64,000 nucleotides of DNA. Source: a virus. The notes under the pieces are model-generated. The model had not been told where the DNA came from, ran no database searches, and was given only the letters and a program-made list of their open reading frames with translations. The position numbers and the translations under genes were made by a program. Location: positions 14,559 to 78,558 of IMG/VR virus record IMGVR_UViG_3300027759_000073; one strand, written 5' to 3'. Shown here one piece after another: positions 8,810 through 39,841 of the stretch (its first letter is position 1; the number at the start of each line of letters is the position of its first letter).

Positions 8810-10936
8810 CTACTTAACGCGCGCACGCGCACGCGCACGGCGTTGTCTTTTAGCAGCATTTTTTCTATCTGGGTCAGGTACATCACCGCCACCGCCAGAG
8901 TTGCCTCCAGAAGGGGCTCCAGAGCCTCCAGAAGGGCCCGTAGAGCCTCCAGAAGGCGCAGATGCACCAGCAGCCCCAACTGCTGCTACAGCGGCTCCTG
9001 CAGCAACAAGCGTCCTTCTATCCCCAACATTGATTGAGGAGCCCAGGGCAACATATGTGTCAAACACTCCATCAAAGACATTGATTTCCTCTTCAAACGA
9101 TTCCTTTACTTCCGCAGGGGCATCAACAAGAGCCTCCGCAATCGCTGCACCGTCTTCTGGTGAAACATTGTCAACAACAATTGCATCAAAAACTTCTGTC
9201 GCCTGTGACGCATCAATGCTTTCCAGGACCTTTGCGCTAGTTGCCAACTCGGTTGCTTGCTCGCCATCAATGCCGCCATCTTGTCCGATAATCAAATCAA
9301 CAACTGCTGAAACCTGGTCGTTGCTGATACTTGCGTTTTCGAGGACATTAACAACTTCCGCAAATTTTTCCTCGTCTAGTTCTGTGCTTAAAACAGCATC
9401 GAATGTTCCGAGCAAAACCTCATCTGAAACTTTTTCGTCAAAGATTGCATTGATAAGTGTGCTGAATTCTTCGGCGCTAAGAGGAGCCTCAAGGATTGAT
9501 TCTGCCAACGCGACAGTATCTTCAGCAGAAATGTCTCCGTCAAAGACGGCATCAAACACCGCAGCAAGTTCCTCGGTAGATAAATCAGCAGAAAGCAGGT
9601 TGTCAACAACGGCGACCATCTGCTCCTGTGATGCAGACTCGCTAAACACTGCATCCATAACTTCCTGAAGTTGCTCTAATGGAATATCCGCACCAACAAC
9701 ATCAAGAAGAATCGCGGATGCTTCTTCCGCAGATGTATTATTATCTAAAGTTACATTGTCAATAATTGCGTCAAGAACTTCTGTATCCAAAGGCTGAGAA
9801 TCATCCAACTGGTCAAAGTCGGGGATGGTCACGGTAGTCTCTTCTGATGGTTCAGTTACTGTTATTTCCGTTTCTGGCTCTGAAGGTAGTATTTCATTCA
9901 GCATCTCTGGCAATGTCTCTACTGTTGCTATTTCTTCAGGCAGCGTCTCCTCTGTGGCTGGCGTGGTGTCTTCTGGGATTATGGGCTCTGGCTCAGGCTC
10001 TACGGGGACGACTACAACCACTGGCTGTGTGGTCGTTGTCGGCAATTCCGTCGTTGATGTTGTTGAACTACTTGTAGTTGTAGTAGTCGATGTTGACTGT
10101 GGAACAGTCGTAGTAGTCGTAGTAGTCGTAGTTGTTGTGGATGTTGTTGAAGTTGTAGTTGTGACTGGGGTTGCAGAAGCAGTGTAAGTTTCAATCATTG
10201 ACGAATACACATGTAGAGAGTCATTGTCAGCGCGAACCCTAAACTGATAGGCAACACCATTGGTCAAGTTCCCTATAGTTGCGGATGTGTTATTGGATGC
10301 GATTGCAAAAGATGACTGCCAGTTGTTTGAACTGAAGAACACTGCGTAGCGTTCAACTTCGGCGTAACCAGAACCACCTTCTGGGGCATCCCAGGTAAGA
10401 AATACGCTCTCATTTCCTGCGACCGCCTGAAGGTTTGTTGGGGTTCGCATGCTCAACGGTGCAAGTGTCGTAGTTGTTGTTGACGCAATAGTCGTAGTTG
10501 TGCTTGTTGATGTAGTAGTACTTGAGGTCGTAGTAGTTGATGTCGTCGTAGTTGAAGGTGCATTTGATGGTGCAATATTTACATCCACTACATATGAAGT
10601 TCCGTACCAGCGATTTGGGTCTCCACAGCAAACGCCAGTGCGCAGGCGGTAAGTCCCAGCGCCTAGGTCTCTTGTAATGTATGAATCAAGACCATATTGG
10701 GAGTCATCATTTGCAGCAAGTAATTGATTATTTGAGTCATACAACCACAGCATTGAGTCAATTTGGTATTGCCAAGCGTATGTACGAACAGTAAACACTT
10801 GCGCTTCTTCCAGTGTAAAGTAATAATCGTTAGCGCCAGTCGTAGTAAAACTATCTGCTTTTGCTGATGAAATTGGGCCGAACAATGCCAAAAGAAGCGC
10901 AGGGATAACTATCCAGAAGCCTTTACGCAGTCTCAT
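8810..10936 (-). CDS. Exported surface protein: signal peptide, PPC-like domain, FN3, Thr-rich linkers, acidic repeats, hydrophobic segment and basic tail
   Basis: Signal ending AKA|D; DSMLWLYD...LAANDD...LDSYI...GTYRL (PPC-like); PTNL..V.LTW.AP...L.NG..YQFRVRA (FN3); poly-Thr; RQRRARARARVK tail. Confidence 0.8.
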   Translation of the reverse strand: MRLRKGFWIVIPALLLALFGPISSAKADSFTTTGANDYYFTLEEAQVFTVRTYAWQYQIDSMLWLYDSNNQLLAANDDSQYGLDSYITRDLGAGTYRLRTGVCCGDPNRWYGTSYVVDVNIAPSNAPSTTTTSTTTTSSTTTSTSTTTTIASTTTTTLAPLSMRTPTNLQAVAGNESVFLTWDAPEGGSGYAEVERYAVFFSSNNWQSSFAIASNNTSATIGNLTNGVAYQFRVRADNDSLHVYSSMIETYTASATPVTTTTSTTSTTTTTTTTTTTVPQSTSTTTTTSSSTTSTTELPTTTTQPVVVVVPVEPEPEPIIPEDTTPATEETLPEEIATVETLPEMLNEILPSEPETEITVTEPSEETTVTIPDFDQLDDSQPLDTEVLDAIIDNVTLDNNTSAEEASAILLDVVGADIPLEQLQEVMDAVFSESASQEQMVAVVDNLLSADLSTEELAAVFDAVFDGDISAEDTVALAESILEAPLSAEEFSTLINAIFDEKVSDEVLLGTFDAVLSTELDEEKFAEVVNVLENASISNDQVSAVVDLIIGQDGGIDGEQATELATSAKVLESIDASQATEVFDAIVVDNVSPEDGAAIAEALVDAPAEVKESFEEEINVFDGVFDTYVALGSSINVGDRRTLVAAGAAVAAVGAAGASAPSGGSTGPSGGSGAPSGGNSGGGGDVPDPDRKNAAKRQRRARARARVK

Positions 10937-10984: not shown

Positions 10985-12232
10985 CTAAATCTGCCTATCG
11001 GCGATGTTCCTGTTTTCTACTGGGACCAAAACCCCATGATGGCGTGCCTGGATATCCTTGCGTACCCATGTCATTCCGTATGTTGAATCTAGGTTTTGAG
11101 TACCTTCTCTGCGCTTTAGTCGTTCTGCCATTGACTGGAAGGTTGGGTCATCGCTTAGATTTAGGTATGAGTTATGCGACCACGGAAGGTCATAGAAGGC
11201 TGGTGCATTTACCAGAAGCGCTCCAGCAGTAGTCCAATGCTCTTCAATTCTTGGGTCTTCGCAGACAACTGGACCAGACAGGGCATACGATGGAACATCC
11301 GCCCCAACAAGTGGTCTATCGACTTCAAGCATCTTTTCAATAATATTTGCGTCCATTGATATGTCTGAATCGACATAGAGAATCGCTTGATAGTTAACAA
11401 CTCCGTGATTCAATTCCGTGCAGTCTTCGCCCCAATGATGCCCGCTCGTGACACGGACTCGTTGGGCAAATTCACGGATTAGGTTGCGCCCAGTTTCAAT
11501 GCGAATCCACCTGTTTCCAGAAGTAACTTGGGCGTGCATATCGTTAATTGAGTATGTCCAGTAATCTCCGTTGACTTCCTTGAGTGCATCAATCACTTCC
11601 TTGAATGGCTCAAGGCCACGGTTGTCAAGTTCAAATGCAGAGAACCATTTAACATTTGGAAACTTGCGCATGATTTCTGCTCTATCAGCCATCCAGTTCA
11701 GATGCTCTCTTGCATCGCATTTCCATCCGACAAGCGGAGTAGCGATAACAAAATGCATCTGGTAATCAACTTCTCTTAGAAATGGCATCTTTATCTTCTT
11801 TATGTAGTCGGAGCAAACACCTGCGTAGTGAGCGAGGTTAAGAGTTTTCACATCAGAATGAGACTCTGGCATAACCATGACACATTTATTTGATGCAAGT
11901 GGTTTCCCAGGAAAAGCCCAGACAAAACTGTTGCTAGTTATTGTGTAGTCGTCCGTATTGTGGAAGAAACAATGCAGTCCCGAGTCTTTGCAGATTCCAA
12001 GTGCCACATCGTTTTTGCAATGAATCCAGAGTTTCTGTGAGCGTTCTTGTAGCCAGCCAATCTCGATTTTGTGCTGTGGTCCATCATGCCCAAGAAATAG
12101 ACCGTCTTGGTTTGCCCAAACATCTACCTCAACATCAAATCCCTGACTTATTGCAGCATCAATGTATTCAGGTGTGTTTTCAAGTTCTGGTTTAGGACCT
12201 TGAAGGTTCCCACGGTGGGATATGTAAATCAT
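10985..12232 (-). CDS. Fusion: PLC/GDPD-like phosphodiesterase plus GT-A-like glycosyltransferase
   Basis: N-terminus ISHRGN...EN...GFDVEVDVW...GHD...IHCKN; C-terminus has YVDSD (DxD). Confidence 0.75.
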   Translation of the reverse strand: MIYISHRGNLQGPKPELENTPEYIDAAISQGFDVEVDVWANQDGLFLGHDGPQHKIEIGWLQERSQKLWIHCKNDVALGICKDSGLHCFFHNTDDYTITSNSFVWAFPGKPLASNKCVMVMPESHSDVKTLNLAHYAGVCSDYIKKIKMPFLREVDYQMHFVIATPLVGWKCDAREHLNWMADRAEIMRKFPNVKWFSAFELDNRGLEPFKEVIDALKEVNGDYWTYSINDMHAQVTSGNRWIRIETGRNLIREFAQRVRVTSGHHWGEDCTELNHGVVNYQAILYVDSDISMDANIIEKMLEVDRPLVGADVPSYALSGPVVCEDPRIEEHWTTAGALLVNAPAFYDLPWSHNSYLNLSDDPTFQSMAERLKRREGTQNLDSTYGMTWVRKDIQARHHGVLVPVENRNIADRQI

Positions 12233-12936
12233 TTTTCAACCTGAACCCAAATCCAGTTTTTGTGGTTATCGCCAGGACCAGTTTCCCTAATATCAAATTT
12301 AAAGTTTTTGAAACCTATTTTTCCAACTAGGTCGTCAAATACTGTTTGCTCATCTTGGATACTTACATCTGAGTGACCGTTCGTGCTGCCAGCATCATAA
12401 TTATTGTCGTAGTAGCCAGCAGTAGGTATCTCGCCCTTCCCGCCATAACCCATTTGGAAACATAACTTCCCGCCTGGCTTGAGAACCCTGTAGATATCCT
12501 TCAAGATATCAAACCTAATTTTATGCACGCAAATATGCTGGAAGCAGATTACGGCAAAAACCACATCGTAAACATCGTCGGCAATAGCAGAGAGATTGTC
12601 TCCGCTAGTTACATATAGGTTTGGCTCGGCAATGTTATTTGCCTTGACATTGAGACGCGCCCTTTCAATATTCACATGAGAAATATCTATCCCGTCAACC
12701 CGAGCAAAACGATTTGAGAACTTGACCAGGTTTCTTCCAGGTCCACATCCGTACTCAAGTGCTACAAGGCCATTTGTGTCAAAGTCCTTGAACAAGAAAT
12801 TGTCATAGTCTGACCAGTTGTTGTGAGCATCGTATGAGCCAACTACTGGGTCCCTGAAATCAAGTGACCACTTTGCTGCATATTCGTCGTAATACGAATT
12901 CTGCATTCCCAAGTAATCGTCTTTGTCCTTGCTCAT
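12229..12936 (-). CDS. Class I SAM-dependent methyltransferase
   Basis: LEYGCGPG, VDGIDIS, YDVVFAVICFQH and RVLKPGG motifs. Confidence 0.9.
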   Translation of the reverse strand: MSKDKDDYLGMQNSYYDEYAAKWSLDFRDPVVGSYDAHNNWSDYDNFLFKDFDTNGLVALEYGCGPGRNLVKFSNRFARVDGIDISHVNIERARLNVKANNIAEPNLYVTSGDNLSAIADDVYDVVFAVICFQHICVHKIRFDILKDIYRVLKPGGKLCFQMGYGGKGEIPTAGYYDNNYDAGSTNGHSDVSIQDEQTVFDDLVGKIGFKNFKFDIRETGPGDNHKNWIWVQVEK

Positions 12937-14306
12937 TTGTTGTTCTCCAAGTAGTAGTTCAGGTCTTCAGGTGTTCCGATTCCCCACATCTTGGGAACTT
13001 CCTTAATCCTAATCTTTTTATCATCCTGAATCGCTTCATTGAATACAGGGCAAACATAGAACTCATTATTTGTTCTAATGTCTTTTTCAATCATCTGGTT
13101 TGCATATTTGACATAGTCAGAACCGTGCTTCCAGTAATAGATTCCAACGGTGGCATTATCTGAGATTGGGTTCTTCTCTGCCACTTCTGACACGAAGCCA
13201 TCATCTCCAAGTTTTGCATAGGACCATTTTGGATGGGTTGCCTTGAATGTCAGGATTCCGCCGTCAATCTCGTCAGCACCAAACGCATAGAGGCATTCAT
13301 TGCTATCCCATTCAACGACTTGGTCGGAGTTTGCCATTAGCAATGGCGCGTCAGTATCGATGAGGTGCGAAGCCAGCAGGGTTGTGCAGGCGGCCCCTTC
13401 TGTCATTCCATCAACCAAGACAATGTCGCATCCTGGCTTTATGAGGTTGAGAACCTGCTTTAGGTTGTATTTCTCGTAGTGGTCTTTTTGAACCAAGAAA
13501 ATAAAGTGCGCGTCAACATTGAGGTTGTCAACAACTACCTGAATCATTGGCTTGCCATTTACCTCGATAAGCGGCTTTGGGAATGTGTAACCAGCCTGAG
13601 CAAAGCGTGAGCCAGCGCCTGCCATTGGTATCAAAACATTCATCTTTTCGTTCCTCCAAGCGACTGGCTTTTTGCCACGGGTTTCAATTTCATCAACGAA
13701 CTTCATCAAACTATTTTTATTAAGGTCGTCGGCATTCTTGATTGCAAAAAGATTGGCGCCAGAACTAAGTGCGCCTTCCCTTCCAATATGTGAATCCTCA
13801 ACAATAATGGTGTTTGCTGGACTTGAATCTAAAGAGACTATGCACTGCCAGTACATCTCTGGGTGCGGCTTGTGGTGCTTTACATCCTCGTTGCTCATGA
13901 TGTAACTGACATATTTGAGCACACCAATTGCATCAAGCGCCGTGATTACAGTATCCCTAATCGCGTTACTTGCCACAGCAATCTTCCATCCGCGCTCCTT
14001 AAGGGTCTGCATGATGTCAATAGCGACATAGTTCTTTGGAAACTCGGACAAGATTTTTAGCGTTGCTTCTTGCTTGTCTTCCCAAACTTGCTGGTGATTC
14101 GATTCTGGAAGTCCCTTGTTTTGACTCAACATCTTTAACTTTGTAGTTGTGCCAAGTCCGTCGTACATTGACAGATGCTCATCGCGGGAAATCACATACT
14201 TTGGGTCAATCCTGCTGAGGGCGATATTTAGGGAGTCATAATGCACATCCCTAGATTCAATTAGAACACCATCAAGGTCAAAGATTACAAGGAAGTTACT
14301 TTTCAT
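12933..14306 (-). CDS. Fusion: HAD phosphatase plus NTP transferase (nucleotidyltransferase)
   Basis: FDLDGVL, VASN, KPHPE and IVEDS (HAD); IPMAGAGSRF...PKPLI (NTP transferase). Likely start MKSNF. Confidence 0.88.
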   Translation of the reverse strand: MKSNFLVIFDLDGVLIESRDVHYDSLNIALSRIDPKYVISRDEHLSMYDGLGTTTKLKMLSQNKGLPESNHQQVWEDKQEATLKILSEFPKNYVAIDIMQTLKERGWKIAVASNAIRDTVITALDAIGVLKYVSYIMSNEDVKHHKPHPEMYWQCIVSLDSSPANTIIVEDSHIGREGALSSGANLFAIKNADDLNKNSLMKFVDEIETRGKKPVAWRNEKMNVLIPMAGAGSRFAQAGYTFPKPLIEVNGKPMIQVVVDNLNVDAHFIFLVQKDHYEKYNLKQVLNLIKPGCDIVLVDGMTEGAACTTLLASHLIDTDAPLLMANSDQVVEWDSNECLYAFGADEIDGGILTFKATHPKWSYAKLGDDGFVSEVAEKNPISDNATVGIYYWKHGSDYVKYANQMIEKDIRTNNEFYVCPVFNEAIQDDKKIRIKEVPKMWGIGTPEDLNYYLENNK

Positions 14307-14961
14307 GTGGGTTTGGTCCCGCATGTCTGTGCCACTTATTGTGACGAACAATACTCTTACCATTGCACTTCATCAGATATTTATCCCTCACGCGCATTGA
14401 CCACTCTACATCTTCTTCTTCGTTCCATCCGCGAGACTCGTCCAGCGGCTCTTCCAGCATCACATGCTTTTTTAGCATGAAGAACCCGCCAGAGATATAC
14501 ATATATTGCGTTTGAGTCCAGTCGTTATAGTCAAGCGACCAGGCCCTACCGTGTCCAGGCTTGTCCCATAATGACCAATCCATTGGATTGCGTGCTCCAT
14601 TGATTAGGTACTGGGGGCATGAGCAGATTTCCCAATCTGTCCCGAACTTCTTAAACTCTTCATACCAAGCACTATCAAAAATGTGGTAATCATGCATTAA
14701 CACAATGTTTTCGTACTTCGCGTTCTGAACAAGAATGTTCTTTTTGCGGGTAATCCATCGCGGCTTTATTGACTCGTCAAAGTCAATCTTTACGATGTCA
14801 TCGCCTTCAATCCCAGACGAATCTCCGCCGCCTACAAAAAGCATTTCGTACTCTGGCACTCCAAGACTTCGGATGTTTTCAACAATTTCAGAAAGTCTAT
14901 TTTTATCTTCGTAAACAGTGATTATCCCAAAGGTCCACGGAATGTCATGCATTCTCCGCAC
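14296..14961 (-). CDS. Glycosyltransferase (GT-A/GT2-like)
   Basis: TFGIIT, ITRKKN, VLMHDY, YISGGFF, LDE...EEDVEWS motifs. Confidence 0.75.
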   Translation of the reverse strand: MRRMHDIPWTFGIITVYEDKNRLSEIVENIRSLGVPEYEMLFVGGGDSSGIEGDDIVKIDFDESIKPRWITRKKNILVQNAKYENIVLMHDYHIFDSAWYEEFKKFGTDWEICSCPQYLINGARNPMDWSLWDKPGHGRAWSLDYNDWTQTQYMYISGGFFMLKKHVMLEEPLDESRGWNEEEDVEWSMRVRDKYLMKCNGKSIVRHNKWHRHAGPNPHEK

Positions 14962-16069
14962 CTTCTAGTATTGAGCGATAAACATGATTCCATTCAGGTC
15001 CACGCTTTTCCATAGTGAATAGGTTCTTTACATTTGCAAGATTCTCTTCAACTTCGTCTTTGCGCATTGATGGGTCCATAAGTTCGTTTAAGTGGTAATT
15101 CCACTCACTCTTGTTTCGCGCCACTCTTCCAACTCCATAACTTGCCATAAATTCATACTCGGGGGACCAGGATGAAATAAACGGAATGCCAGCGGCGACA
15201 TACTCAAGTCCCTTGATAAAAGACTTTGCATGATTGAATTGAACATCGTTCAATGGAACAATTCCAATATCAATTGGTGCAAAGAGTTTTGGGTAATCTA
15301 GAATTGGGACCAGTGGGAGCGTCGTAGTGGAATCCGCACTAATCCCAAGTTGGTCGGCGGCGTGTGCTGCATTTGTCTGCAAGTGCCCAGAATGATGAAA
15401 CTTTAGACCGTTGCTATTTATAAATGACCCCACAGAATCTGCCACCGATTCAAGGTCACTTGAGCGCCAAGGGGTAGCCCCAACCCAGCCAATTGTTGGC
15501 TTATCAACAAAGTTGACTTTGTTTCTCTTCCACCTATCAAGGTCAATGCCGTTTCGCACCATGAAGACATTGTCATTAAATTTTGAATAGTAATCGCCGA
15601 GGAATGGGGTTGACACCACAATGGCGTCGGCAAGAGCGATTATTTTGTTATAGATATCTCTGTTATTCTCTGGGCTTTTCTCTGGGTCTGTAACATCGTA
15701 AGCACGGTTTGTCTTTTCTAGACCGTCATGCCAGTCGTCAATATCCACGACAATAATCTGCCCCAGTGCCTTTGCTTTGTGCATCTCTTCCAGAACTCTC
15801 TGATGCATAATGAGTTTAAAAACAATTATATCCCAACCGTGGATTGCCTTTTCGTCCTCAACCATTAATCCGAATCCATGCGCTTCGTTAAATCCAGGGA
15901 AACCCATACCAGTACCCCACTGGTGCTTCTTTAGTTCCCTTGATGGAAGAAGGCAGCGATACCATCCGCAACCATTGGGTTGAAGCGGCTTTGTTCCCCA
16001 AGACCAGTCAAATGTCAAAAAAGAGATATTTGGGTTCTTTTCCATTTTTCTTCCTGTATTGTCTTCCAA
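14945..16069 (-). CDS. Glycosyltransferase (GT-B/GT4-like)
   Basis: YRCLLP, DIDD, VRNGID, IGWVG, DIGIVPL..FN.AKS.IK.LEY.AAGIP motifs. Confidence 0.85.
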   Translation of the reverse strand: MEDNTGRKMEKNPNISFLTFDWSWGTKPLQPNGCGWYRCLLPSRELKKHQWGTGMGFPGFNEAHGFGLMVEDEKAIHGWDIIVFKLIMHQRVLEEMHKAKALGQIIVVDIDDWHDGLEKTNRAYDVTDPEKSPENNRDIYNKIIALADAIVVSTPFLGDYYSKFNDNVFMVRNGIDLDRWKRNKVNFVDKPTIGWVGATPWRSSDLESVADSVGSFINSNGLKFHHSGHLQTNAAHAADQLGISADSTTTLPLVPILDYPKLFAPIDIGIVPLNDVQFNHAKSFIKGLEYVAAGIPFISSWSPEYEFMASYGVGRVARNKSEWNYHLNELMDPSMRKDEVEENLANVKNLFTMEKRGPEWNHVYRSILEGAENA

Positions 16070-16131
16070 GGTATGCGGCGCGATTCAACGCTACATGATA
16101 ATAACACACCCGATTGGTTAACGAAAAACCA

Positions 16132-16599
16132 CTAAGAGATATCAGTGTATTTTATAGAGTCTTTTTTTCTTTTGCTTTTATTGTAGGCAGAAATGAACTC
16201 TGGTGTACCTATTACATTTTGTCCGCCATCAACTTCATATAGCAGATTATATGAATTTTCTAGGGCAAAAAGTATAATCCAACTTAGTGTTGAAGCATTC
16301 ATTGGTTTGCCCGACTCAAGTACCGACATATACGAAATATCATCTAATCCTGGGTATGCAATTATCACATTAGATAATTCTGGTTTTAGCCACTCTGGAA
16401 TGCGTGGGTCTATTAGCCATCCACACTTAAATGCTCTGCACATCTCTGGTCTTTCTTCATGGATGGTGCAACCGACACCCTTGTCGACATAGTGGCAAGG
16501 TCTCCCATTATAGAAAACATGACCGTTTATCTCTCCAGAAAAGTACCCTTCACAGCACCTTGTGCATGTTCCGCATGACCTATTCAACTGGCTCTCCAA
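16132..16599 (-). CDS. YkgJ-like cysteine-cluster (Zn/Fe-S) protein
   Basis: CGTCTRCC...C......CTIHEERPEMCRAFKC motif. Confidence 0.75.
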   Translation of the reverse strand: MESQLNRSCGTCTRCCEGYFSGEINGHVFYNGRPCHYVDKGVGCTIHEERPEMCRAFKCGWLIDPRIPEWLKPELSNVIIAYPGLDDISYMSVLESGKPMNASTLSWIILFALENSYNLLYEVDGGQNVIGTPEFISAYNKSKRKKDSIKYTDIS

Positions 16600-16623
16600 T
16601 TTTAAATATTTTTGGGTTATGCA

Positions 16624-17385
16624 TTATTCGGATTGCGTCTCAACAATGTTATCTTTTATTTCGCGTAATATTTGATTCCGCAAACCCGAACGCCTAAATA
16701 TCTCATACTTTTCCGTCAATTTTGAAAATCTTGGCAGTGGGTTCAACTGAACCAAGGAAAGCGCTATCGTGCTGAGTCTTTTTGTTACCTGATAACGATG
16801 TAGTCTTATCCTTTTATCAGTATGAAACTCAATATACATAAGTGGCTCATCCTGGTTTATTTGCAACTCATTAATCCCATCCCAAAGATTGAACTCGGCA
16901 TTAAATGGTCTATACCATTTACCAATGTCAAAACGGCCAGGAACTAGCGAGCCATATTTGCTGCTTTCAACATTGTGAAAGTACGGAGATGTCATGGATG
17001 CCATGACACTTTCATCTGAAAAAAGTAATAGCGAATACTCAAAATTTACAAGCATATTATTCTTTAAAGTTGGCTGATGCAAGACTGAACTTGGTGTCTG
17101 CAGTATTTCTGGAATATCGTAAAAAACTTTGTTATCAACATATGTTGTATGATTTTTTACCATATTGTTAAAAACAAAAATATTCTTCATCTTGCTTGAC
17201 ACAGCAGGGCATTTAATGAATGTATCTCGCTGCTGATTACCAGCGTAGTTTTCCACACATTGGCTGTATAAAGAATTTGGTGATGGGTACAGGTGATTTA
17301 GGTCAAAGGCTAATGTTTGGTTCCAGTAAGGAGCCCAATATATGTCAATATATTTACTGTCATCGTTTGTTTTGTATTCATACAT
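16624..17385 (-). CDS. Hypothetical enzyme-like protein, distantly like 18532 and 24821
   Basis: KCPA motif early; PG.FD and EPLMYIEF late. Confidence 0.55.
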   Translation of the reverse strand: MYEYKTNDDSKYIDIYWAPYWNQTLAFDLNHLYPSPNSLYSQCVENYAGNQQRDTFIKCPAVSSKMKNIFVFNNMVKNHTTYVDNKVFYDIPEILQTPSSVLHQPTLKNNMLVNFEYSLLLFSDESVMASMTSPYFHNVESSKYGSLVPGRFDIGKWYRPFNAEFNLWDGINELQINQDEPLMYIEFHTDKRIRLHRYQVTKRLSTIALSLVQLNPLPRFSKLTEKYEIFRRSGLRNQILREIKDNIVETQSE

Positions 17386-18115
17386 TTAAAATGTTATCCA
17401 GTTCCTCATTTGATACTTCTCGTGGGATTATCTCTGTCTGCATTGTATTGGGTGATTCATGGTCTTGGGTGAATTCATCACAGTGAATAAATGAACTAAT
17501 TATCCATTTATCCCCAGAAATCGGAACAAGCCCAGCGTGCTGATGCGTCCACGATGCTGGGAATACCGCGATTCTTCCAGACACCGCATTTATTGATACA
17601 TCATGGTCGATAAACCCAGTTCCGCCACCCTTTTCTACTGTATTTAAATATATAATTACTCCAAGAACGCGCTTATTTACTGGGTGCTCCGTCCAAGGAG
17701 AGCCATCATGGTGGATTCTGTAAAACCCATTATTTTTCACATAATGCTGAAGTCTAAATCCAGTGTTATATAAAACAGGTGACTGTTGCAAGACTGGGAA
17801 TTCTTCAATATATAAAGCCATTGCTGATGACAATGCTTCTTGGATTTCAAAATAGTTTTTATTGAGCGACAAAGAATAAATGCCCATTGACTCATATGTT
17901 CCTGGATGAAAGTGGAAATCCATCGACGATTTTATATTTGGGTTATACCCACCAATTGTCGGCCCGTTAGAAAAAAACTGACCGTAATTTTTTATGCATT
18001 CTTGGATTATCTCATCACAGCATTGTTTTGTTATCAGGTCATCAATAAAGGCAATATGCCCAGATTTTTCTCCTGCGTATTTAAGCATATGAGCCAATCT
18101 CTGATTCTTCCCCAT
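17378..18115 (-). CDS. 2OG-Fe(II) oxygenase (prolyl-hydroxylase-like)
   Basis: HHD...RVL..IIYLN..GG.T.F...FP..W.H.H...KWI: HxD...H facial triad. Confidence 0.88.
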   Translation of the reverse strand: MGKNQRLAHMLKYAGEKSGHIAFIDDLITKQCCDEIIQECIKNYGQFFSNGPTIGGYNPNIKSSMDFHFHPGTYESMGIYSLSLNKNYFEIQEALSSAMALYIEEFPVLQQSPVLYNTGFRLQHYVKNNGFYRIHHDGSPWTEHPVNKRVLGVIIYLNTVEKGGGTGFIDHDVSINAVSGRIAVFPASWTHQHAGLVPISGDKWIISSFIHCDEFTQDHESPNTMQTEIIPREVSNEELDNILNV

Positions 18116-18539
18116 TTGAAACTGAAAAATTTACCTCTGTAATCTTTATGGACTCCAGAAATACAGAAATTGAATAGTATCCCTCTGACTCAAAAAATGC
18201 AGGTAGCGCGCAGTGATGCAGGTCGTGTTTAATTACATCCATCTTGAATGTTTTTCTAATAAGAGCATTATCCATAGAAAGAAAAAAATCAAGTTTTGAG
18301 CAGTCTACGAAATCGTCATAGTAATTGAATGACATCGACCTGTTTGGTTTTATAACTGGTGGGAATGGCAAAAATCCAGAGTATATGGGTATTAAAATAA
18401 CGCTAACTTTATCTCTATCAAATTCCATTCCAGTCGTTCGCTCGGAGTCGCCAATCTGAATTGGCAAAGACCACTCCTTTGCAATTAATTCAGCCTCTTC
18501 AATATTTTCAACTGACGGACAAAATACAACCCTATCCAT
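18081..18539 (-). CDS. Hypothetical protein
   Basis: 152 aa ORF overlapping both neighbours. Confidence 0.6.
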   Translation of the reverse strand: MDRVVFCPSVENIEEAELIAKEWSLPIQIGDSERTTGMEFDRDKVSVILIPIYSGFLPFPPVIKPNRSMSFNYYDDFVDCSKLDFFLSMDNALIRKTFKMDVIKHDLHHCALPAFFESEGYYSISVFLESIKITEVNFSVSNGEESEIGSYA

Positions 18540-19389
18540 TGTCGCCTCCTATTTTTTTATCTACCCTGTTTTGCTCATGCTTATATGCGCCTTCCCACGA
18601 GACTCGGCGATGAATATTGTCAAAACCAAGGTTATTCAGCAATTTGTAAATCCCAGAATCGCCTTTAATCAATTCAGAATTTTTTATTACATCTGCTCTC
18701 TTGAAGGGTATGGCGTGGAACATTGGTGTTCCTTCCGCGATTGAGAATTCAGAAGTGCTTGTAATATTTAGAACGATATTGCAGTGGTGGTAGTAATCAG
18801 TGTTTACAACACCAGCCATTACATGGTAGTTATCATTTGGCTCCCACTGTGGATGTATAAAAAGTGTGGAGTACCCAGGGGCAGTCTTAAAAAGCCACGG
18901 GTTAGTCAGTTTCAAGTATGATGACTCCTCGCGACCTTTAATCGAGGCTACTGGGCACTTTCCAGCCTGTTCCGCTGGAAATTGGTTTCCCATAAGTTCG
19001 TTATGAGACATTATTTGAGCAAACTCTTCATTGCTTAAGAATTCAGCACCGTATAAATCTGGGTCAAGAATGTCATACTTTGCGTCCCAGTTTTTATGAA
19101 GTTTATTTAGTGGTGTCCTTACATCCAACTTTGCCCACAGCGGAACAGTGTATCCGCCACGAATATAGTCGCTGAGTCCGAAGCACCTCTTTAGACCGCT
19201 AGTTCCGCCAGCGATTTCCTTATACCAATCTGGGGTTTTTTTCCTATTCTCAAATACCTCAACCTTTGGATGCCAAAGTGTATTTGATACAGGAACTGCT
19301 AGTAGTTCGTATGGTTTTGGTACTGGTATTTCTGAAAAAATATCAGCCTTTACTACACTACCTTTTTTTGAAAATAGACGCATGGTCAA
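18532..19389 (-). CDS. Conserved phage hypothetical (possibly DUF6065-like)
   Basis: PDWYK, KRC.G..D...GY..PLW, TAPGYS.LF..P, GVVNTD and GTP....IPFKR; paralog of 24821..25549. Confidence 0.65.
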   Translation of the reverse strand: MTMRLFSKKGSVVKADIFSEIPVPKPYELLAVPVSNTLWHPKVEVFENRKKTPDWYKEIAGGTSGLKRCFGLSDYIRGGYTVPLWAKLDVRTPLNKLHKNWDAKYDILDPDLYGAEFLSNEEFAQIMSHNELMGNQFPAEQAGKCPVASIKGREESSYLKLTNPWLFKTAPGYSTLFIHPQWEPNDNYHVMAGVVNTDYYHHCNIVLNITSTSEFSIAEGTPMFHAIPFKRADVIKNSELIKGDSGIYKLLNNLGFDNIHRRVSWEGAYKHEQNRVDKKIGGDNG

Positions 19390-20827
19390 CCAATGTTTCC
19401 TTTAGTGCATTTGTTTTTAATTCTGCAAATATACGGGCTGCCTTTTCTCTTGAGCCATAGGCATTTAATTCCCTTGTTGCTATCTCCCTAGATACTAGCC
19501 CTTGTCCTTGAGCAACATGCCAAAAATGAGCACTATGAAATACTTCATAGCCGAATATTGGTGTGTCATACGACTGTGGGCAGCGCTCTTTCCATAAATC
19601 TATCAATGTGCTTAATAATTCTGGCTTTTCTGCATTTTGTTGTTCCCTCCACATTTCTGTGTCAGACCTGTCAGAAATATAGTGCATTGCGACCATCGTT
19701 ACTAGGTTCTCCATAAGCAGCGCTGTTTGCTTATTGTGCTGTTCAATAACCGCCTTTGAACCAGGGACATATGCCCCTATAACCGATACCAGCATCCTGG
19801 CCTGCTGAATAGATGTGGCAATTGAGGTTGCTTCTAATGGCTCAAGGAATGATGAGGATAGACCAACGGCAGCACAATTGTATGCCATTGCTGTCTTGTA
19901 GTATCCAGATTTAAATTTAATTATTCTTGCTGGCTGAATATCCCTGCCATGTGCGTCAGATATTTCCTTTACGGCCTGCTCGTCCGAGCAGAAATCTGAA
20001 GCAAAAACATACCCATTTCCCCTTCGCTCTTGAGTTGGTATCTCCCACATCCAGCCATTTGGCATTGCCCTTGCCCTTGTGTATGGCCTGATTTGACCAG
20101 ACTCATCAGACTCTGTCTGAAATACTGCAGCAGAATCGCATGGCAAAAATTTTCTATATGAGTAAAAGTCGGAGTCGTTGTCAACAAGTTTGCCCATTAG
20201 GGCACGGTGAAATCCAGATGAGTCAATGAAGAAATCTGCTGCTACTTCAGTTTTATTCTGCAATATGACTGACTCGATATTCCCATTCTCTGAGTTGCGA
20301 GTTATATCCTCAACTTCTCCATCTATAAATTTGATTCCTCTTGATTGTGATACATCTTTCAAGTATGTATTGAGTTTAAAAGTATCAAAGTGGAACTGAT
20401 TCACAGCATTATGTGGACTTTGCTTATTCAACGGAATTTTATTATTGTACAAATGACTTATCATTGCATTTGTTAGCAACATATTGTTTTCTATAGCAAA
20501 TGCGTAGTTCCCAGCAAAGTAGTGCGGACCTACCTCTCCACCACTAACGCTGTGGAAATAATCTGGGGTATGTGTTGTCCATCCCTCAAACCTTATGCCG
20601 TATTTATGCGTTGCTGCACAACGGTCAACCATCTCATCAACTGATATTCCGTGTTTATCTTGGAAAAAAATACGCCAGTGCTCAGTTGAGCCTTCGCCAA
20701 CTCCGATAATCCCAATTTTCTCCGAGGACACAACAGTAATTTCGTGGTATGGAAGGTGCCCTTTTAAAATTATTGCAGAGACAAGTCCAGATGTTCCTGA
20801 ACCAACAATGCAAATGTGCTTTTTCAT
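19358..20827 (-). CDS. Flavin-dependent (tryptophan-type) halogenase
   Basis: GSGTSG FAD motif, IGVGEGS, catalytic-Lys region ATHKYGI, WMWEIP (WxWxIP), FLEPLEATSI. Likely start MKKHI. Confidence 0.9.
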   Translation of the reverse strand: MKKHICIVGSGTSGLVSAIILKGHLPYHEITVVSSEKIGIIGVGEGSTEHWRIFFQDKHGISVDEMVDRCAATHKYGIRFEGWTTHTPDYFHSVSGGEVGPHYFAGNYAFAIENNMLLTNAMISHLYNNKIPLNKQSPHNAVNQFHFDTFKLNTYLKDVSQSRGIKFIDGEVEDITRNSENGNIESVILQNKTEVAADFFIDSSGFHRALMGKLVDNDSDFYSYRKFLPCDSAAVFQTESDESGQIRPYTRARAMPNGWMWEIPTQERRGNGYVFASDFCSDEQAVKEISDAHGRDIQPARIIKFKSGYYKTAMAYNCAAVGLSSSFLEPLEATSIATSIQQARMLVSVIGAYVPGSKAVIEQHNKQTALLMENLVTMVAMHYISDRSDTEMWREQQNAEKPELLSTLIDLWKERCPQSYDTPIFGYEVFHSAHFWHVAQGQGLVSREIATRELNAYGSREKAARIFAELKTNALKETLVDHASIFKKR

Positions 20828-20828
20828 T

Positions 20829-21434
20829 TCATTCAAACCATGAAACAAATGAATAACGAACCGTATCATCGCTAATACCAGTTGGATTTACATGGTGATA
20901 ATAAGGAAAATTAGATGGGAATAGGATAATGCTTCCAGCCTTTGGCTTTACTGTAACCCCAATCAATGGAAAGACAATCTCCCCACCAGTAAAATCATCA
21001 TTTAAAAATCCAATAATACTCAACACCCTTTTGTTGTCTGGATGGTGGTCAATGTGGCCTTTATACTCCGCTCCGCGACCATACTTGAGAACCCTAAATC
21101 CCTCATCTTGCTGCAAATTTAACGAATACATTGTACGATAATGCCAAATTGCCTGTTCTAGATTCTCTCGTATGTTCAACCAGGAATCAGAAAGTGGTTT
21201 CATTCTTTCGACAGTCATGAGTTCTTTGTCGAGTTGGAGCGGGCTTAATTCGCAACCCAAAGAAGAGCGATAGTCAGTTACAAACTGGTTATTATTAGAA
21301 CCAGTTCTAGTTTGATACCAATTTAAATATCCCCAATCACGCTTGCATTCTTCTTCTAGTAAGTCAATAAAATTTTCTGTTTTGAAGACTCTGTCATACT
21401 GAACAATACATGTTCCAAGTTGCTCGTGTTTCAT
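20829..21434 (-). CDS. 2OG-Fe(II) oxygenase (prolyl 4-hydroxylase-like)
   Basis: HID...LNDDFTGGE..FP...FPSNFPYYHHV...RYS. Start is 6 nt after TACTAT (leaderless). Confidence 0.9.
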   Translation of the reverse strand: MKHEQLGTCIVQYDRVFKTENFIDLLEEECKRDWGYLNWYQTRTGSNNNQFVTDYRSSLGCELSPLQLDKELMTVERMKPLSDSWLNIRENLEQAIWHYRTMYSLNLQQDEGFRVLKYGRGAEYKGHIDHHPDNKRVLSIIGFLNDDFTGGEIVFPLIGVTVKPKAGSIILFPSNFPYYHHVNPTGISDDTVRYSFVSWFE

Positions 21435-21490
21435 AAGAATATAGTATCACTAATCTCTGCAATGTCAATGATTAAATTATTAGAAATTTA

Positions 21491-22723
21491 TCATCCATCA
21501 ATGTCTTGCACGAAAGTCGTATTTCCAGTTGCAATATGCGTGCTGATATTTCTGGTTAGGACTACAAGCCCACCCTGTTTTCCAGTCGCACCAGTTCCAC
21601 CCTGCGCACCAGCGTTTCCAGAAGTTCCTGGGTTTCCAGGGTTTGCCGTTCCAGCCGCGCCTCCAGGATATGTTGGGTTGTGATATTGCGTACCAGGATG
21701 TGAATAATGGAATGAACTTCCTGGGTGTGAGTGATAATAAACTGTTGCTGGGGTGTGGTGCGCGTACGCATTAACATGGTGCCAACCAGGGTTGTGCGCG
21801 CCGTATTTACCGTTATGGCTACTGCAGCAGTGGTATGAGGCTTCTGGGTTATGAGCGGCTGCGTTGTGAGCGCCTGCATGTCCAACTGGGTTGTGCCCAA
21901 CAGCGTGACCAGTTGGGTTATGTGCAGATGTTCCAGCAACAGTGGTTCCAGCATTTCCTGCGACACCAGCATTTCCAGGATTTCCCGCACCTCCTGGATT
22001 GCCTAATGAGCCAACATTTCCTGAAGTTGGTTCGCTAACAAATGTTCCCGTTCCAGTGATGGTTTTAGCAACTACTACAACGACTCCGCCACCTTGTCCA
22101 CCAGTTCCGCCAGCACCGCCAGTTCCTGCCGCACCAAACGAGCCTCTTGTCCCAGCCGTTCCTGGGTTTCCAGCGGTTGCTCCACCGCTAGGCGAAGGTG
22201 CTGCACCTCCAGGGTTTGCTGTTCCGTCTGTTCCAGTGGAACCCAAGTTTCCAGCGGCTCCAGTTGACCCATCAGCACCAACCGCCCCAACATACCACCG
22301 TGACAAACTTGCACCAGATTGGACTACTCCATTTAACAGTGAATCGTAGTCCTTGACATTTCCTACTGGGAGAGTTCCAGATGAGTTTGCTGAATCAATT
22401 GAACTGCCAGCAGAGAATCCGCCAGTTCCATCTATTCTTGTTAGTACTGTTCCAGCCAGCACTGCCGTAGTTTGGGCTACTCCAGCAGGCATTCCGACTG
22501 TGCCGTTGTTGGTCAGTGTATTCTTTACGAATAATCTAAATCCGTTAGTAAATAAAGTTACAGATGCACTTACGGTCAAAGTATCATAATACATGTCTCG
22601 CGACAAAAAAGTATTTGTTGAAATTACAACAGTTCCATCAACGCCATTTCCGAATAACTTATCTGAGCCAGTCTTTTGAACTGGAGTTGTCCGTGTTGAT
22701 GAAAATCTGTTGATTAAAGGCAT
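21491..22723 (-). CDS. Gly-X-Y-rich virion fibre protein with His-rich insert
   Basis: GXY runs flank an ~85-aa segment with 18 His. N-terminal domain is paralogous to 22723..23457. Likely start MPLINRF overlaps the upstream stop. Confidence 0.7.
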   Translation of the reverse strand: MPLINRFSSTRTTPVQKTGSDKLFGNGVDGTVVISTNTFLSRDMYYDTLTVSASVTLFTNGFRLFVKNTLTNNGTVGMPAGVAQTTAVLAGTVLTRIDGTGGFSAGSSIDSANSSGTLPVGNVKDYDSLLNGVVQSGASLSRWYVGAVGADGSTGAAGNLGSTGTDGTANPGGAAPSPSGGATAGNPGTAGTRGSFGAAGTGGAGGTGGQGGGVVVVVAKTITGTGTFVSEPTSGNVGSLGNPGGAGNPGNAGVAGNAGTTVAGTSAHNPTGHAVGHNPVGHAGAHNAAAHNPEASYHCCSSHNGKYGAHNPGWHHVNAYAHHTPATVYYHSHPGSSFHYSHPGTQYHNPTYPGGAAGTANPGNPGTSGNAGAQGGTGATGKQGGLVVLTRNISTHIATGNTTFVQDIDG

Positions 22724-23457
22724 TACGCCACCTGCATGTAATTCACTGTTCCAGCGGAACAACCAGTGCCGCCAGTAACATCTGTTGAAACGGAACTATT
22801 TAGCACCGTTGCAGAAGATACTACCAAAATAACACCGCCACCGCCACCACCAGCACCTGCGGTTCCTGGGGCTTTGAAATATGCGGTTCCAGATGAAACG
22901 GTTATATAACGAGCAGAAATAAGTACCACTCCACCGCCTGCTCCAGATGCTCCACCAGCACCACCGCGAAGGAATGTTGGAGTTGTGCTAGATGCAGTTA
23001 CTGCCCATCCACGAATAGCCTGCAGCGGTTGCTGGTAGTACTGTGAGCCGCCAAGAGCCGCCGTTGGTGCAGTTGCAGTCTGTGTCGCGCTCGCGCCACC
23101 AAGGCTATGTGTTACAGCAACTGTTGCTGCTCCACCCTGCGCTACTGTTCCAGCAGTTGAATATCCTGTTGAGTGACCAATTACTGAGTTTGGACCAAGA
23201 GTCAGCGTATTTCTAACAAATATACGGTATCCGTTAGGAGTTAATTGAATACCATCAGCAATCGTAAGATTGTTATAGAACTTGTCCGAAGTAAGGGATG
23301 TATTCGATGAGATTGTTGCGTCTCCATCACTTCCACTGCCATACACTGGGTCTGGCAAGTTTAGGTATGTGGCAGTAGCAACAAGTGCGCTGGAAATAGA
23401 CGAAGTTGCTTCAGCCGTTGATATTCCAGTTCCGTTCACGCGAACGAACGCAGCCAT
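22723..23457 (-). CDS. Glycine-rich virion structural protein
   Basis: YGSGSDG...YNNLTI...NGYRIFV.NTL; GGGGGGVILV. Confidence 0.65.
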   Translation of the reverse strand: MAAFVRVNGTGISTAEATSSISSALVATATYLNLPDPVYGSGSDGDATISSNTSLTSDKFYNNLTIADGIQLTPNGYRIFVRNTLTLGPNSVIGHSTGYSTAGTVAQGGAATVAVTHSLGGASATQTATAPTAALGGSQYYQQPLQAIRGWAVTASSTTPTFLRGGAGGASGAGGGVVLISARYITVSSGTAYFKAPGTAGAGGGGGGVILVVSSATVLNSSVSTDVTGGTGCSAGTVNYMQVA

Positions 23458-23819
23458 TACGACTCCTCAATACCAGTAACAATAATATTTACTGCGGTGT
23501 TTGCACTTGCATAACCAATAAGTTGGTCGCTGTTTGTTGCGTTTGCAGTACTTCCGTTATTTGTAAAAACAAGGTTTGTTGAAAGTAAAACTGTTTCGTT
23601 CGCAGCAAGCGAAAGTGCATTTGTGAAGTTCTGAGTTGAAGCCTGAGCCACATTTAATGGCTTTAGAACAAGCGTTACCGTTACCGCGCTGCCAGTCGTA
23701 TTGCACAGAATAATCTGCTTTGCAATAGCCGTGGTACTAATCGGTGTGGTATAAAGAACCGTTGATGTAGTTGTCGTTAGTTGGGAAGGCCCAACAAGAC
23801 GCTTCTGTGTTAATGCCAT
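23457..23819 (-). CDS. Small beta-rich fibre-associated protein
   Basis: LYTTP...KQIILCN...SLAANET...TGIE; coupled to fibre genes. Confidence 0.6.
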   Translation of the reverse strand: MALTQKRLVGPSQLTTTTSTVLYTTPISTTAIAKQIILCNTTGSAVTVTLVLKPLNVAQASTQNFTNALSLAANETVLLSTNLVFTNNGSTANATNSDQLIGYASANTAVNIIVTGIEES

Positions 23820-24618: not shown

Positions 24619-24828
24619 TCATTGCTGGTCGGCAGATAGTCCACTTGTATTTCTTCCAACAAAAGTATCACCCGCAATATTATACCGTGACGAGGCAATT
24701 TGGTTAGAGCCTGATATTGGGCGGGATTGGCTGTATATCCATTCACCGAGCGTGTCGGCTCTAGCGACGGTAGACCATAATGCCAGTAAGGCTACTGGAA
24801 CAAAAATTAACCAACGACTTTTAATCAT
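24619..24828 (-). pseudogene. Probable truncated secreted-protein remnant
   Basis: Clear signal peptide MIKSRWLIFVPVALLALWSTVARA|D, but only 69 aa in total. Confidence 0.4.
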
Positions 24829-25549
24829 ACTTTTTTGGAACCCAATATTTTTGAGAATACCCACCAATTAACTTGCTAAAAATTTTGTGCATCCTAAACA
24901 GGTTAGTTTTTTCGTTTAATTTTATTCTTTCACTTTTCCAAATTTCTCTCTTAAAAGGAATTATTTGAAGTATTGGAGTTCCTGCTGGTATTAATCCAGT
25001 AAAACCTTTTTTAATAAAGAAAGGAATACTTCCAGTTCCAGCAAACAAACCAGTATCTGTATCAATCACTCCAGCAGTAGTAACAAAAGGAGATTCAGTA
25101 TCATTCAAAGGTTGCTGAATCAAACACGAATAACCCTTTGGGGTAATTGGGGCATAATACATTTGCCAAGCAAACTCGTTTTCATGGCAACCAATTGGGG
25201 TTGGAATACTTTTTCTGGTTGCAACTATAAACGGATTAGGTTGACAGGCATACACCCATTCAATTTCATCTCCAACTTCTGTAATATAAATATCAGTCCA
25301 AGTTTTATATATGTAACCAGCCGTCATTGCATCCCTAAAAGGAACACACGCTTTAACGGTTAAATCAAGTCTGCCATTAAACATTTTTCTAGGAAGGTTT
25401 ACGGCACGCAATCTTTTGTACCAAGATGGAATAGATTTTGTTGCTGATTTTGGTACTTCTACAACATCCCAAGCATCATTGTTTGTTGATTCAAATGTAA
25501 TTAATTTTTCTTTTAGAAAGAAATCCAAGAAATAGTTGCTTCGTCCCAT
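24821..25549 (-). CDS. Conserved phage hypothetical, paralog of 18532..19389
   Basis: IPSWYK, KACVPFRDAMTAGY, TPKGYSCL, GVIDTD, GTPILQIIPFKR. Confidence 0.7.
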   Translation of the reverse strand: MGRSNYFLDFFLKEKLITFESTNNDAWDVVEVPKSATKSIPSWYKRLRAVNLPRKMFNGRLDLTVKACVPFRDAMTAGYIYKTWTDIYITEVGDEIEWVYACQPNPFIVATRKSIPTPIGCHENEFAWQMYYAPITPKGYSCLIQQPLNDTESPFVTTAGVIDTDTGLFAGTGSIPFFIKKGFTGLIPAGTPILQIIPFKREIWKSERIKLNEKTNLFRMHKIFSKLIGGYSQKYWVPKKYD

Positions 25550-39538: not shown

Positions 39539-39841
39539 TTAATTGTCTTCGTCTTCTTCGTCTTCGTTTTGACCAAACATGTCCAATAGGTCTTGGAATG
39601 TAACATCAGAAGCCATAAAGGGCTTGGCTATTACATCACCCTTAAATGTAATTTTGGGGCCCACTGCAATATTACTCATTGCATCTAGTATGCGTTCGAA
39701 TACAGAAACAGCAACAAATGGCGGTATTGAGCCCAAATCAACATGGATTGGCTCATCTCGGTCTTCGTAGGAAACAGAAATAGTAATCATCGGAAAGCGC
39801 AGGTTCATCTGGCTTTCAAGAGGGTCTCGACCCTCTGTCAT
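39539..39841 (-). CDS. Hypothetical protein
   Basis: 100 aa with acidic tail; overlaps the upstream stop. Confidence 0.6.
   Translation of the reverse strand: MTEGRDPLESQMNLRFPMITISVSYEDRDEPIHVDLGSIPPFVAVSVFERILDAMSNIAVGPKITFKGDVIAKPFMASDVTFQDLLDMFGQNEDEEDEDN

Follow-up and report, generated by a model that had tools for sequence, protein, structure and literature searches.

In a 64,000-nucleotide stretch of the IMG/VR viral contig IMGVR_UViG_3300027759_000073 (hereafter the window), genes for a prolyl 4-hydroxylase (P4H)-like 2-oxoglutarate (2OG) oxygenase and a flavin-dependent halogenase follow a Gly-rich adhesin gene whose product carries a His-rich insert. We found that the linkage of the oxygenase and halogenase to this His-rich adhesin is tight, specific and two-way. 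Because the pairing recurs in about a hundred related viral contigs, the His-packed adhesin is a concrete candidate, though an unproven one, for the target of viral halogenases. To our knowledge, a natural substrate has been lacking for about twenty years both for these halogenases and for the many 2OG oxygenases found in aquatic phages, and earlier guesses at their role were antibiotics, organohalogen metabolites and control of 2-oxoglutarate. An earlier note on this DNA had read a His-rich Gly-X-Y fibre and a single 10-kb block of tailoring enzymes behind it as one system for modifying the fibre, and had asked whether fibre insert and enzymes co-occur across phages. The oxygenases and halogenase are indeed linked to the fibre, whereas the sugar genes of the block form a separate module. 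The core cassette (23819-17378, minus strand) contains the following features.

23457..23819, minus strand: p120, a small conserved protein of 120 residues that opens the cassette
22723..23457, minus strand: FIB244, a 244-residue Gly-rich adhesin paralogue without a His insert
21491..22723, minus strand: the 'fibre', a 410-residue Gly-rich adhesin paralogue with a His-rich hypervariable insert
21674..21931, minus strand: the His-rich insert, 86 residues with 18 His, 5 HNP, 7 Tyr, 1 Trp and one CC pair
20829..21434, minus strand: OG201, a P4H-like 2OG-Fe(II) oxygenase (PF13640, 8e-14, 52.8 bits, cut-off 27)
19358..20869, minus strand: flavin-dependent halogenase of the BrvH/VirX1 type (PF04820, 8e-98, 328.6 bits, cut-off 21, profile positions 2-449 of 458)
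18532..19389, minus strand: DUF6065-like protein, 285 residues, with a dUTPase-like fold
18081..18539, minus strand: p152, a 152-residue accessory protein, possibly immunoglobulin (Ig)-like
17378..18115, minus strand: OG245, a second 2OG oxygenase, P4H/lysyl-hydroxylase-like, an accessory part of the cassette (PF13640, 2.5e-9, 38.4 bits, cut-off 27)

Two-way linkage of the His-rich adhesin and the enzymes

We mapped the window proteins onto a forward set of 80 IMG/VR loci that had been chosen by halogenase similarity alone (37-90% identity). The recurrent order was p120, adhesin, His-adhesin, in some loci p152, oxygenase, halogenase, DUF6065-like gene and, in some loci, the second oxygenase; altogether the core cassette was found in about 100 IMG/VR contigs. 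Among 86 halogenase-bearing loci, the DUF6065-like gene was present in 76, the His-adhesin and the first oxygenase in 70 each, the His-free adhesin in 67, p120 in 52, p152 in 43 (either behind the DUF6065-like gene, as here, or between adhesin and OG201) and the second oxygenase in 36. A Cys-cluster protein occurred in 6, a glycosyltransferase in 5, and a haloacid dehalogenase (HAD)-nucleotidyltransferase and a methyltransferase in 1 each. The p120 copies lie upstream of the adhesin pair at 31-91% identity, and p120 itself matched no family. When the comparison was limited to 58 distinct loci in full view, 50 had an adhesin with 14-38 His per 90 residues within 6.5 kb, and 4 further loci had an adhesin with 8-12.

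For the reverse set, 46 loci were collected with a DNA pattern encoding the His motif PH[HN]DGPHG as the sole criterion. Here a halogenase was present in all 23 loci with at least 3 kb of downstream sequence, a DUF6065-like gene in all 18 with at least 4.2 kb, and an oxygenase in 29 of the 30 with at least 1.3 kb, the exception being a chance match. Relatives of the adhesin that lack the insert (L088, L089 and L090, with 0-2 His per 90 residues) had no such enzymes within 7-9 kb, and Halorubrum virus HRTV-15, which encodes a related adhesin (gp33), has neither halogenase nor oxygenase; its DUF6065-like gene, gp36, lies three genes from gp33. This negative-control set of three informative loci plus HRTV-15 is small because searches for His-free relatives yielded few loci: a profile-based locus search, swamped by the poly-Gly pattern, gave 3, and a DNA pattern for DMYYDTLT gave 8.

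The linkage also held through rearrangement. The enzymes come first in L051, L058, L070 and L075, and the adhesins lie on the other strand in L053-L056. These loci bear on a purely historical explanation, in which the gene order of one ancestral lineage was left unbroken and there is no functional coupling. All of the loci do come from one broad phage group that shares the structural neighbours p566, p223 and a long fibre, and gene order in structural modules is generally conserved. Nevertheless, rearranged loci hold the genes together in a region of high mosaicism, the pairing persists despite divergence of the halogenase to 44% identity and of the insert beyond alignability, the catalytic residues are strictly conserved, and the cultured cyanophage Syn9, an unrelated myovirus, has a similar gene order. 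We therefore consider an explanation by shared history alone to be very unlikely.

Several related arrangements were seen in other viral contigs. In a related phage (L188:17876-20445 and L189:11820-13581), three tandem genes for proteins of 268-296 residues with 15-17 His per 90 are located behind a 2102-residue fibre-like protein, and there is no halogenase within the stretch covered. L093:3247-12867 is a variant in which two adhesin-type genes, one of them encoding 9 His per 90 residues, are accompanied by two P4H-like oxygenases and three DUF6065-like genes but by no halogenase. Syn9-like arrays at L083:3500-18100 and L081:6600-16000 contain three halogenases and one, respectively, together with at least 10 tandem genes for 190-230-residue proteins and DUF6065-like genes; in L083, the array ends with Gly-rich genes (23-28% Gly) on the opposite strand. 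The T4-like phages S-H38 and HTVC008M (L002:3542-4429 and L003:156-1046) encode a protein of about 296 residues with 33-36% Gly, not His-rich, a few kb from their halogenase/oxygenase genes. Across the few oxygenase-free loci, the Pro content of the insert could be compared with oxygenase presence only anecdotally (1 Pro in L064, 12 Pro in L080).

The adhesin, its insert and the cassette proteins

The N-terminal domain of FIB244 is homologous to the 'putative adhesin' gp33 of HRTV-15 (2.9e-10, 56% identity over 50 residues), and the two proteins share a Gly-rich layout. A PDB sequence search with the 244-residue protein returned nothing significant, and an Atlas look-up gave a lead only (Mtd_N at 0.87). 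The 410-residue paralogue has the N-terminal domain and two conserved beta-strand segments in common with FIB244, and its start, an ATG at 22723, matches the starts of its homologues. By homology we assign it to the Gly-rich gp38-like adhesin family, which is a host-range determinant of hafunaviruses (Liu et al. 2021, PMC8651126). The Gly-X-Y character described earlier was borne out by four runs of 8-10 triplets each, a pattern reached by none of 2,000 shuffles, but the protein scored only 10.9 bits against the Pfam Collagen profile PF01391 (cut-off 27.2), which rules out a bona fide collagen. In a scan for tandem repeats, the fibre genes showed nothing beyond weak repeats of 9 to 18 nt. The AlphaFold2 model of the adhesin is confident in the N-terminal domain and has a predicted local distance difference test (pLDDT) score of 57 as a whole; a VIA fold search with it gave Z 5.5 to 6f45_D, among many generic beta-solenoids with Z up to 8. 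Since the model is poor and the search returns generic beta-solenoids, we make no claim about the fold, including the polyglycine-II sandwich with hypervariable tip loops that characterises gp38-like adhesins.

The insert sits between the two conserved strand segments, where His-free paralogues have poly-Gly. Given the kinship to HRTV-15 gp33-type adhesins and to the family of Liu et al., the His-rich insert thus appears to take the place of the receptor-contacting hypervariable segment. Across the family, the equivalent segments are hypervariable and low in complexity, with many HNP, HPG and HxH motifs; the motif PH[HN]DGPHG is common to one insert subfamily, and HAH, HSH, HGH, HYH and HTH are among the commonest tripeptides.

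The frequency of HxH-type tripeptides raises the question of whether the segment is a metal-binding tip element, like the T4 gp37 needle with its His-coordinated iron, that requires no covalent modification, with the enzymes acting on another virion protein, on the dUTPase-fold partner or on the host envelope. His-coordinated metals are established in phage fibres and spikes such as T4 gp37, and the insert here likewise lies within a Gly-rich adhesin scaffold. An alternative enzyme target is at hand, too, as the DUF6065-like protein, the tightest neighbour of the halogenase, has invariant Trp, Tyr and Cys residues. However, the HxH motifs of the trimeric gp37 needle are regularly spaced, whereas the inserts are hypervariable and of low complexity with no regular repeat, and that of the window, unlike those of family members with many such motifs, contains a single HxH. 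Metal binding would leave unexplained why the enzymes track the His-rich variant, and it is in any case compatible with modification. As an account that replaces modification of the adhesin, we find it quite unlikely.

The enzymes themselves were as first described: the fibre is followed on the same strand by a P4H-like oxygenase, a flavin halogenase and a second oxygenase. The nearest solved structures to OG201 are Bacillus anthracis P4H (1.7e-6) and human collagen P4H (C-P4H) alpha-2, and those to OG245 are B. anthracis P4H (9e-5) and the lysyl hydroxylase LH3 (1e-3). H127, D129 and H180 of OG201 are invariant among 66 homologues, as are H135, D137, H193 and K203 of OG245 among 29; both enzymes thus have the HxD...H iron triad and a basic residue for binding 2OG. 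By sequence, therefore, both oxygenases are closest to peptidyl prolyl and lysyl hydroxylases. A role for the oxygenases and glycosyltransferases in DNA hypermodification was rejected because the oxygenases are of the P4H type rather than the TET/JBP type. The nearest structures to the halogenase are BrvH (6frl, 2e-57) and VirX1 (6qgm, 8e-40). Aligned to BrvH, it has all of the hallmarks that had been claimed for it, which are the GxGxxG FAD site, a catalytic Lys (Lys89), WxWxIP in the form GWxWEIP (W273 to P278) and a catalytic Glu (E343/E346). Residues G23, G25, G28, K89, W273, P278, E343 and E346 are invariant among 79 homologues.

The DUF6065-like gene adjoins the halogenase in 76 of the 86 loci and is the most tightly adjacent gene of the cassette. 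An AlphaFold2 model of its 285-residue product, built on 38 homologues (pLDDT 88), matches dUTPases over nearly the full length (VIA Z 9.2, Foldseek E 3e-4); a cupin/2OG fold was rejected, as cupins scored below 4.3. Identity in these fold matches is 8-14%, and a motif-3-like stretch, GVVNTD, can be picked out by eye. C69 is invariant, as are a Trp and a Tyr. The protein is homologous to Syn9 gp43 (6.7e-9) and to HRTV-15 gp36, and a second DUF6065-like gene is present in the window, as listed below. The dUTPase-fold protein is a companion both of the adhesin family and of the halogenase. For p152, an Atlas look-up gave weak, Ig-like leads only. The earlier note had paired the 285-residue protein with the product of 16624-17385 as two related unknown proteins; this kinship found no support, the latter giving an hhalign probability of 0.8% against the DUF6065-like alignment. 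Two further entries near the cassette are the following accessory and paralogous genes.

24821..25549, minus strand: second DUF6065-like gene, 242 residues, behind an upstream FN3/Gly-rich protein (phrog_7084, 1.7e-31; 24% identity to the 285-residue copy; HRTV-15 gp36 match 1.9e-21; motif-3-like stretch GVIDTD)
16132..17385, minus strand: two variable accessory genes, for a 253-residue phrog_17480 protein (16624-17385; in 10 loci) and a 155-residue CxxCxxCC Cys-cluster protein (16132-16599; phrog_9155; in 6 loci)

The Cys-cluster protein predicted earlier is therefore present, with a weak CxxCxxCC match (E 0.013), and its gene lies on the opposite strand in some loci.

Proposed modification of the adhesin and comparison with known systems

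Considering the two-way linkage amid free recombination, the kinship of the oxygenases to protein hydroxylases and the existence of peptide-directed flavin halogenases, we tentatively propose, as the reading with the most support and at slightly less than even confidence, that the oxygenase or oxygenases and the halogenase modify the His-rich segment of the adhesin. Upon late expression in the host cytoplasm, the oxygenase(s) would hydroxylate residues of the His/Asn/Pro-rich segment, for which the recurrent HNP, HPG and NPG motifs are candidate sites. The halogenase, supplied with reduced flavin by a host reductase, would halogenate an aromatic or imidazole side chain of the same adhesin, and the receptor-binding tip would thereby carry chemistry beyond the genetic code. 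Both the adhesin as the substrate and the identity of the modified residues are presumptive. A broader form of the proposal, that phage-encoded flavin halogenases and P4H-like oxygenases are virion-maturation enzymes that hydroxylate and halogenate the His-rich, hypervariable loops with which a gp38-like adhesin binds its receptor, possibly on His itself, we regard as possible but rather doubtful.

The enzymes might instead be auxiliary metabolic or secondary-metabolite genes that hydroxylate or halogenate a small molecule or short peptide, or that consume 2-oxoglutarate, the end of the fibre module being a common insertion site. Free indoles and further small arenes are halogenated in vitro by both BrvH and VirX1, and the halogenase/oxygenase arrays of L081 and L083 have no His-rich adhesin. 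Published readings point the same way: a trio of dioxygenase, Trp halogenase and dUTPase-fold Cys protein was interpreted as organohalogen biosynthesis (Iyer et al. 2010, PMC2938197), and modulation of 2OG levels was proposed for phage oxygenases (Sullivan et al. 2010, PMC3037559). A hitch-hiking moron, however, would not be expected to show near-complete co-occurrence with the His-rich adhesin in both directions and absence beside His-free relatives. In this region modules such as the glyco cassette described below are shuffled, and yet the adhesin-enzyme pairing holds. Genes of a small-molecule pathway, such as those for a peptide synthetase, a precursor peptide or a transporter, are absent from the cassette, and for both oxygenases the closest relatives of solved structure have protein residues as their substrates. 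We consequently judge a metabolic role to be unlikely.

Several observations weigh against modification of the adhesin. Its support is genomic context throughout, and the adhesin is taken to be a virion protein solely from its homology and the position of its gene. Because the loci belong to related phages, shared descent accounts for part of the linkage. Four of the 58 loci, those with the most divergent halogenases (L027, L079, L081 and L083), are without a His-rich adhesin; S-H38 and HTVC008M encode halogenase homologues near Gly-rich proteins that are His-poor; and haloarchaeal viruses have DUF6065-like genes without the enzymes. The insert is modelled as disordered (pLDDT about 35). In L008 the insert contains no Trp and no Tyr, the usual halogenase targets, so the target there would have to be His or a residue elsewhere, and no flavin halogenase acting on histidine is known to us. 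No Flavin_Reduct gene was found in the 78.5-kb contig (59% complete), so a host reductase would be needed. Finally, we saw no leader peptide, and no protease or RiPP recognition element (RRE)-type domain was matched among the cassette genes, RiPP denoting peptides that are made on the ribosome and modified after translation; a recognition part of a novel kind may have escaped the matching. The description of the cassette as a RiPP-like cluster accordingly survives as an analogy: a substrate-type gene adjoins tailoring enzymes in about 100 contigs, but the recognition element and protease of a RiPP system were not seen.

Compared with the earlier guesses, a strictly co-inherited, His-packed protein of the receptor-binding type offers a hypothesis that is specific and open to testing by mass spectrometry. 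Should the hypothesis hold, it would supply a natural substrate for VirX1-type viral halogenases and for many cyanophage 2OG oxygenases, and phage particles would bear non-canonical residues at the surface that contacts the host. Phages would then be tailoring their host-recognition surface enzymatically, a new layer of host-range determination. The adhesin would also be the first halogenated virion protein known to us, and the enzymes would provide protein-directed halogenases for biocatalysis.

The closest known counterpart is a gene neighbourhood of Syn9, in which 2OG dioxygenases in tandem are encoded together with tryptophan halogenases and a Cys protein of the dUTPase fold (Iyer, Abhiman, de Souza and Aravind 2010, PMC2938197). 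The window contains the same three kinds of protein at 20829-17378, its dioxygenases being of the classical 2OG type and its dUTPase-fold member likewise having a conserved Cys; the halogenase is homologous to gp41/gp42 (about 1e-41) and the DUF6065-like protein to gp43. The order is also alike, with fibres, Gly-rich gp38/gp39, halogenases gp41/42, dUTPase-fold gp43 and oxygenases in Syn9, and a helicase later in both. In contrast, the window has 2 oxygenases rather than 10 and a single halogenase, it derives from a siphovirus rather than a T4-like myovirus, and its adhesin is far richer in His, Syn9 gp38 having 10 His in its last 90 residues. The published interpretation for Syn9 also differs, being secondary-metabolite synthesis and not virion-protein modification. 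Other published readings of phage oxygenases and halogenases are 2OG modulation (PMC3037559) and antibiotic protection (PMC2984593), and our literature search found no paper linking these enzymes to an adhesin. The enzyme set is therefore a known neighbourhood; what is new is that it is strictly coupled to a His-rich gp38-like adhesin.

Other known systems resemble single parts of the cassette. As in the gp38-like adhesins of T-even phages, S16 and hafunaviruses (PMC8651126), Gly-rich motifs flank hypervariable segments, and as in HRTV-15, a small gene and a DUF6065-like gene lie near an adhesin with a homologous N-terminal domain; but no described gp38-like adhesin has a His-rich segment or dedicated oxygenase and halogenase genes. 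[quoted passage not shown] VirX1 is likewise phage-encoded. BrvH and VirX1 have open active sites, their natural substrates are unknown, and no link of either enzyme with a protein substrate or an adhesin gene is known. Collagen-type hydroxylation systems include the P4H enzymes of PBCV-1 and Bacillus anthracis and the collagen hydroxylase-glycosyltransferase of mimivirus. The window resembles these in that a viral P4H-type oxygenase adjoins a Gly-rich, repetitive structural protein with X-Pro-Gly-like motifs, and differs in that the fibre is not a bona fide collagen, a halogenase is added and the glycosyltransferase lies in another cassette. Flavin halogenases that act on ribosomal peptides do exist, such as SrpI (PMC10858898) and ChlH (10.1101/2025.01.12.632611). 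In the systems of SrpI, MibH and ChlH (PMC10858898, PMC12615548), as here, the halogenase gene adjoins a ribosomal substrate and tailoring enzymes, and the substrate region is disordered; the presumed substrate in the window, however, is a 410-residue structural-type protein that would stay intact.

A separate glyco cassette and the source phage

The remainder of the 10-kb block consists of sugar-related genes that the earlier note had assigned to the fibre-modifying system.

10985..16069, minus strand: glyco cassette, made up of the five genes that follow
14945-16069, minus strand: GT-B glycosyltransferase (PHROG glycosyltransferase 3.8e-33, weak GT4/GT1)
14296-14961, minus strand: 221-residue protein that matches nothing, with nothing significant in a PDB sequence search
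12933-14363, minus strand: beta-phosphoglucomutase-like HAD fused to a sugar-1-phosphate nucleotidyltransferase (family matches)
12229-12936, minus strand: S-adenosylmethionine (SAM) methyltransferase (family match)
10985-12232, minus strand: 415-residue protein with a weak GDPD-like N-terminus
8810..10936, minus strand: secreted, mucin-like, Thr-rich FN3 protein of 708 residues; signal peptide, Thr tracts and FN3 region read in the translation

The HAD-nucleotidyltransferase and the methyltransferase named earlier were recovered. Of three proposed glycosyltransferase domains, that at 14945-16069 stood; 14296-14961 and the C-terminal part of 10985-12232 match nothing, and a PDB sequence search with the 415-residue protein also found nothing significant. 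The assignment of these genes to the fibre did not hold. In related phages fetched by an upstream structural protein, the glyco genes move as one unit, and at least 12 related loci have this unit on the opposite strand, upstream of p222/p566 and the fibre genes. The glyco cassette is about 95% identical in DNA to that of L013, whereas the core cassettes of the two are only 41-60% identical in protein. Because of this relocation and this contrast in identity, we conclude that the glyco block is a separately exchanged cassette, outside the oxygenase/halogenase system. The match between window positions 10985-16069 and L013:8000-14656 suggests that lake phages have recently exchanged the sugar module laterally.

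The constant neighbour of the glyco cassette is the Thr-rich protein at 8810-10936, not the fibre. Its homologue adjoins the cassette in L014, L016, L159, L161, L166, L170, L187 and L188, it often follows the relocated unit, and in many relatives it is either adjacent to the glyco genes or located just before the tail module. In addition to long Thr tracts around the FN3 domain, it has a PPC-like region, acidic helical repeats and an Arg-rich tail. The glyco cassette therefore probably serves this secreted protein, which is a likely target of O-glycosylation. Separating the two cassettes matters because it directs work on glycosylation to the right substrate.

The source contig is 78.5 kb in length, and CheckV estimates it to be 59% complete. 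Nearly all of the window genes lie on the minus strand. Read in that direction, they encode a large terminase, a portal, a protease-scaffold, a major capsid protein, small connector proteins and several fibre-like proteins, one of 1783 residues; the region of interest comes next and is followed by an SNF2 helicase and then by the major tail protein and tape measure. On the basis of this gene order, the source phage is a siphovirus and the halogenase/oxygenase block lies inside its structural region. It has no close cultured relative: a search of the block for near-identical DNA in cultured phages gave no match, nor did the fibre in a tblastn search of such phages run with low-complexity filtering. 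A freshwater metagenome (share 0.27) is among the DNA sequencing runs that contain the stretch, runs with small shares being left out of account, and the sequencing-run search listed no RNA runs. The uncultured phage is thus probably from fresh water. A scan of genome contigs with the halogenase gave a single distant match, to a Lake Lanier metagenome-assembled genome, and we accordingly make no host identification.

Genes of the region overlap or are separated by gaps of less than 65 nt throughout, and promoter and terminator scans did not rise above the expectation from shuffled sequence. The best sigma-70-like match of the region, in a scan that was overall not above chance, lies at 21441-21468 on the minus strand (TTGACA, 16 nt, TACTAT with TG), within the 56-nt gap between the adhesin and the first oxygenase.

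Other parts of the contig had features of their own. The large terminase (52303-53628) has an odd pairing of nearest cultured relatives, the Methanothermobacter phages psiM2/psiM100 (46%) and Gordonia phages (44%). A metallophosphoesterase gene lies between the scaffold and capsid genes, and the head protease, 915 residues in total, carries a long C-terminal extension; the coordinates for these two observations are 39838-40824 and 41997-44744. Between 56000 and 64000, the G+C content climbs from about 0.45 to 0.50-0.575 and several genes turn to the plus strand, so that this end of the contig looks like a differently composed module.

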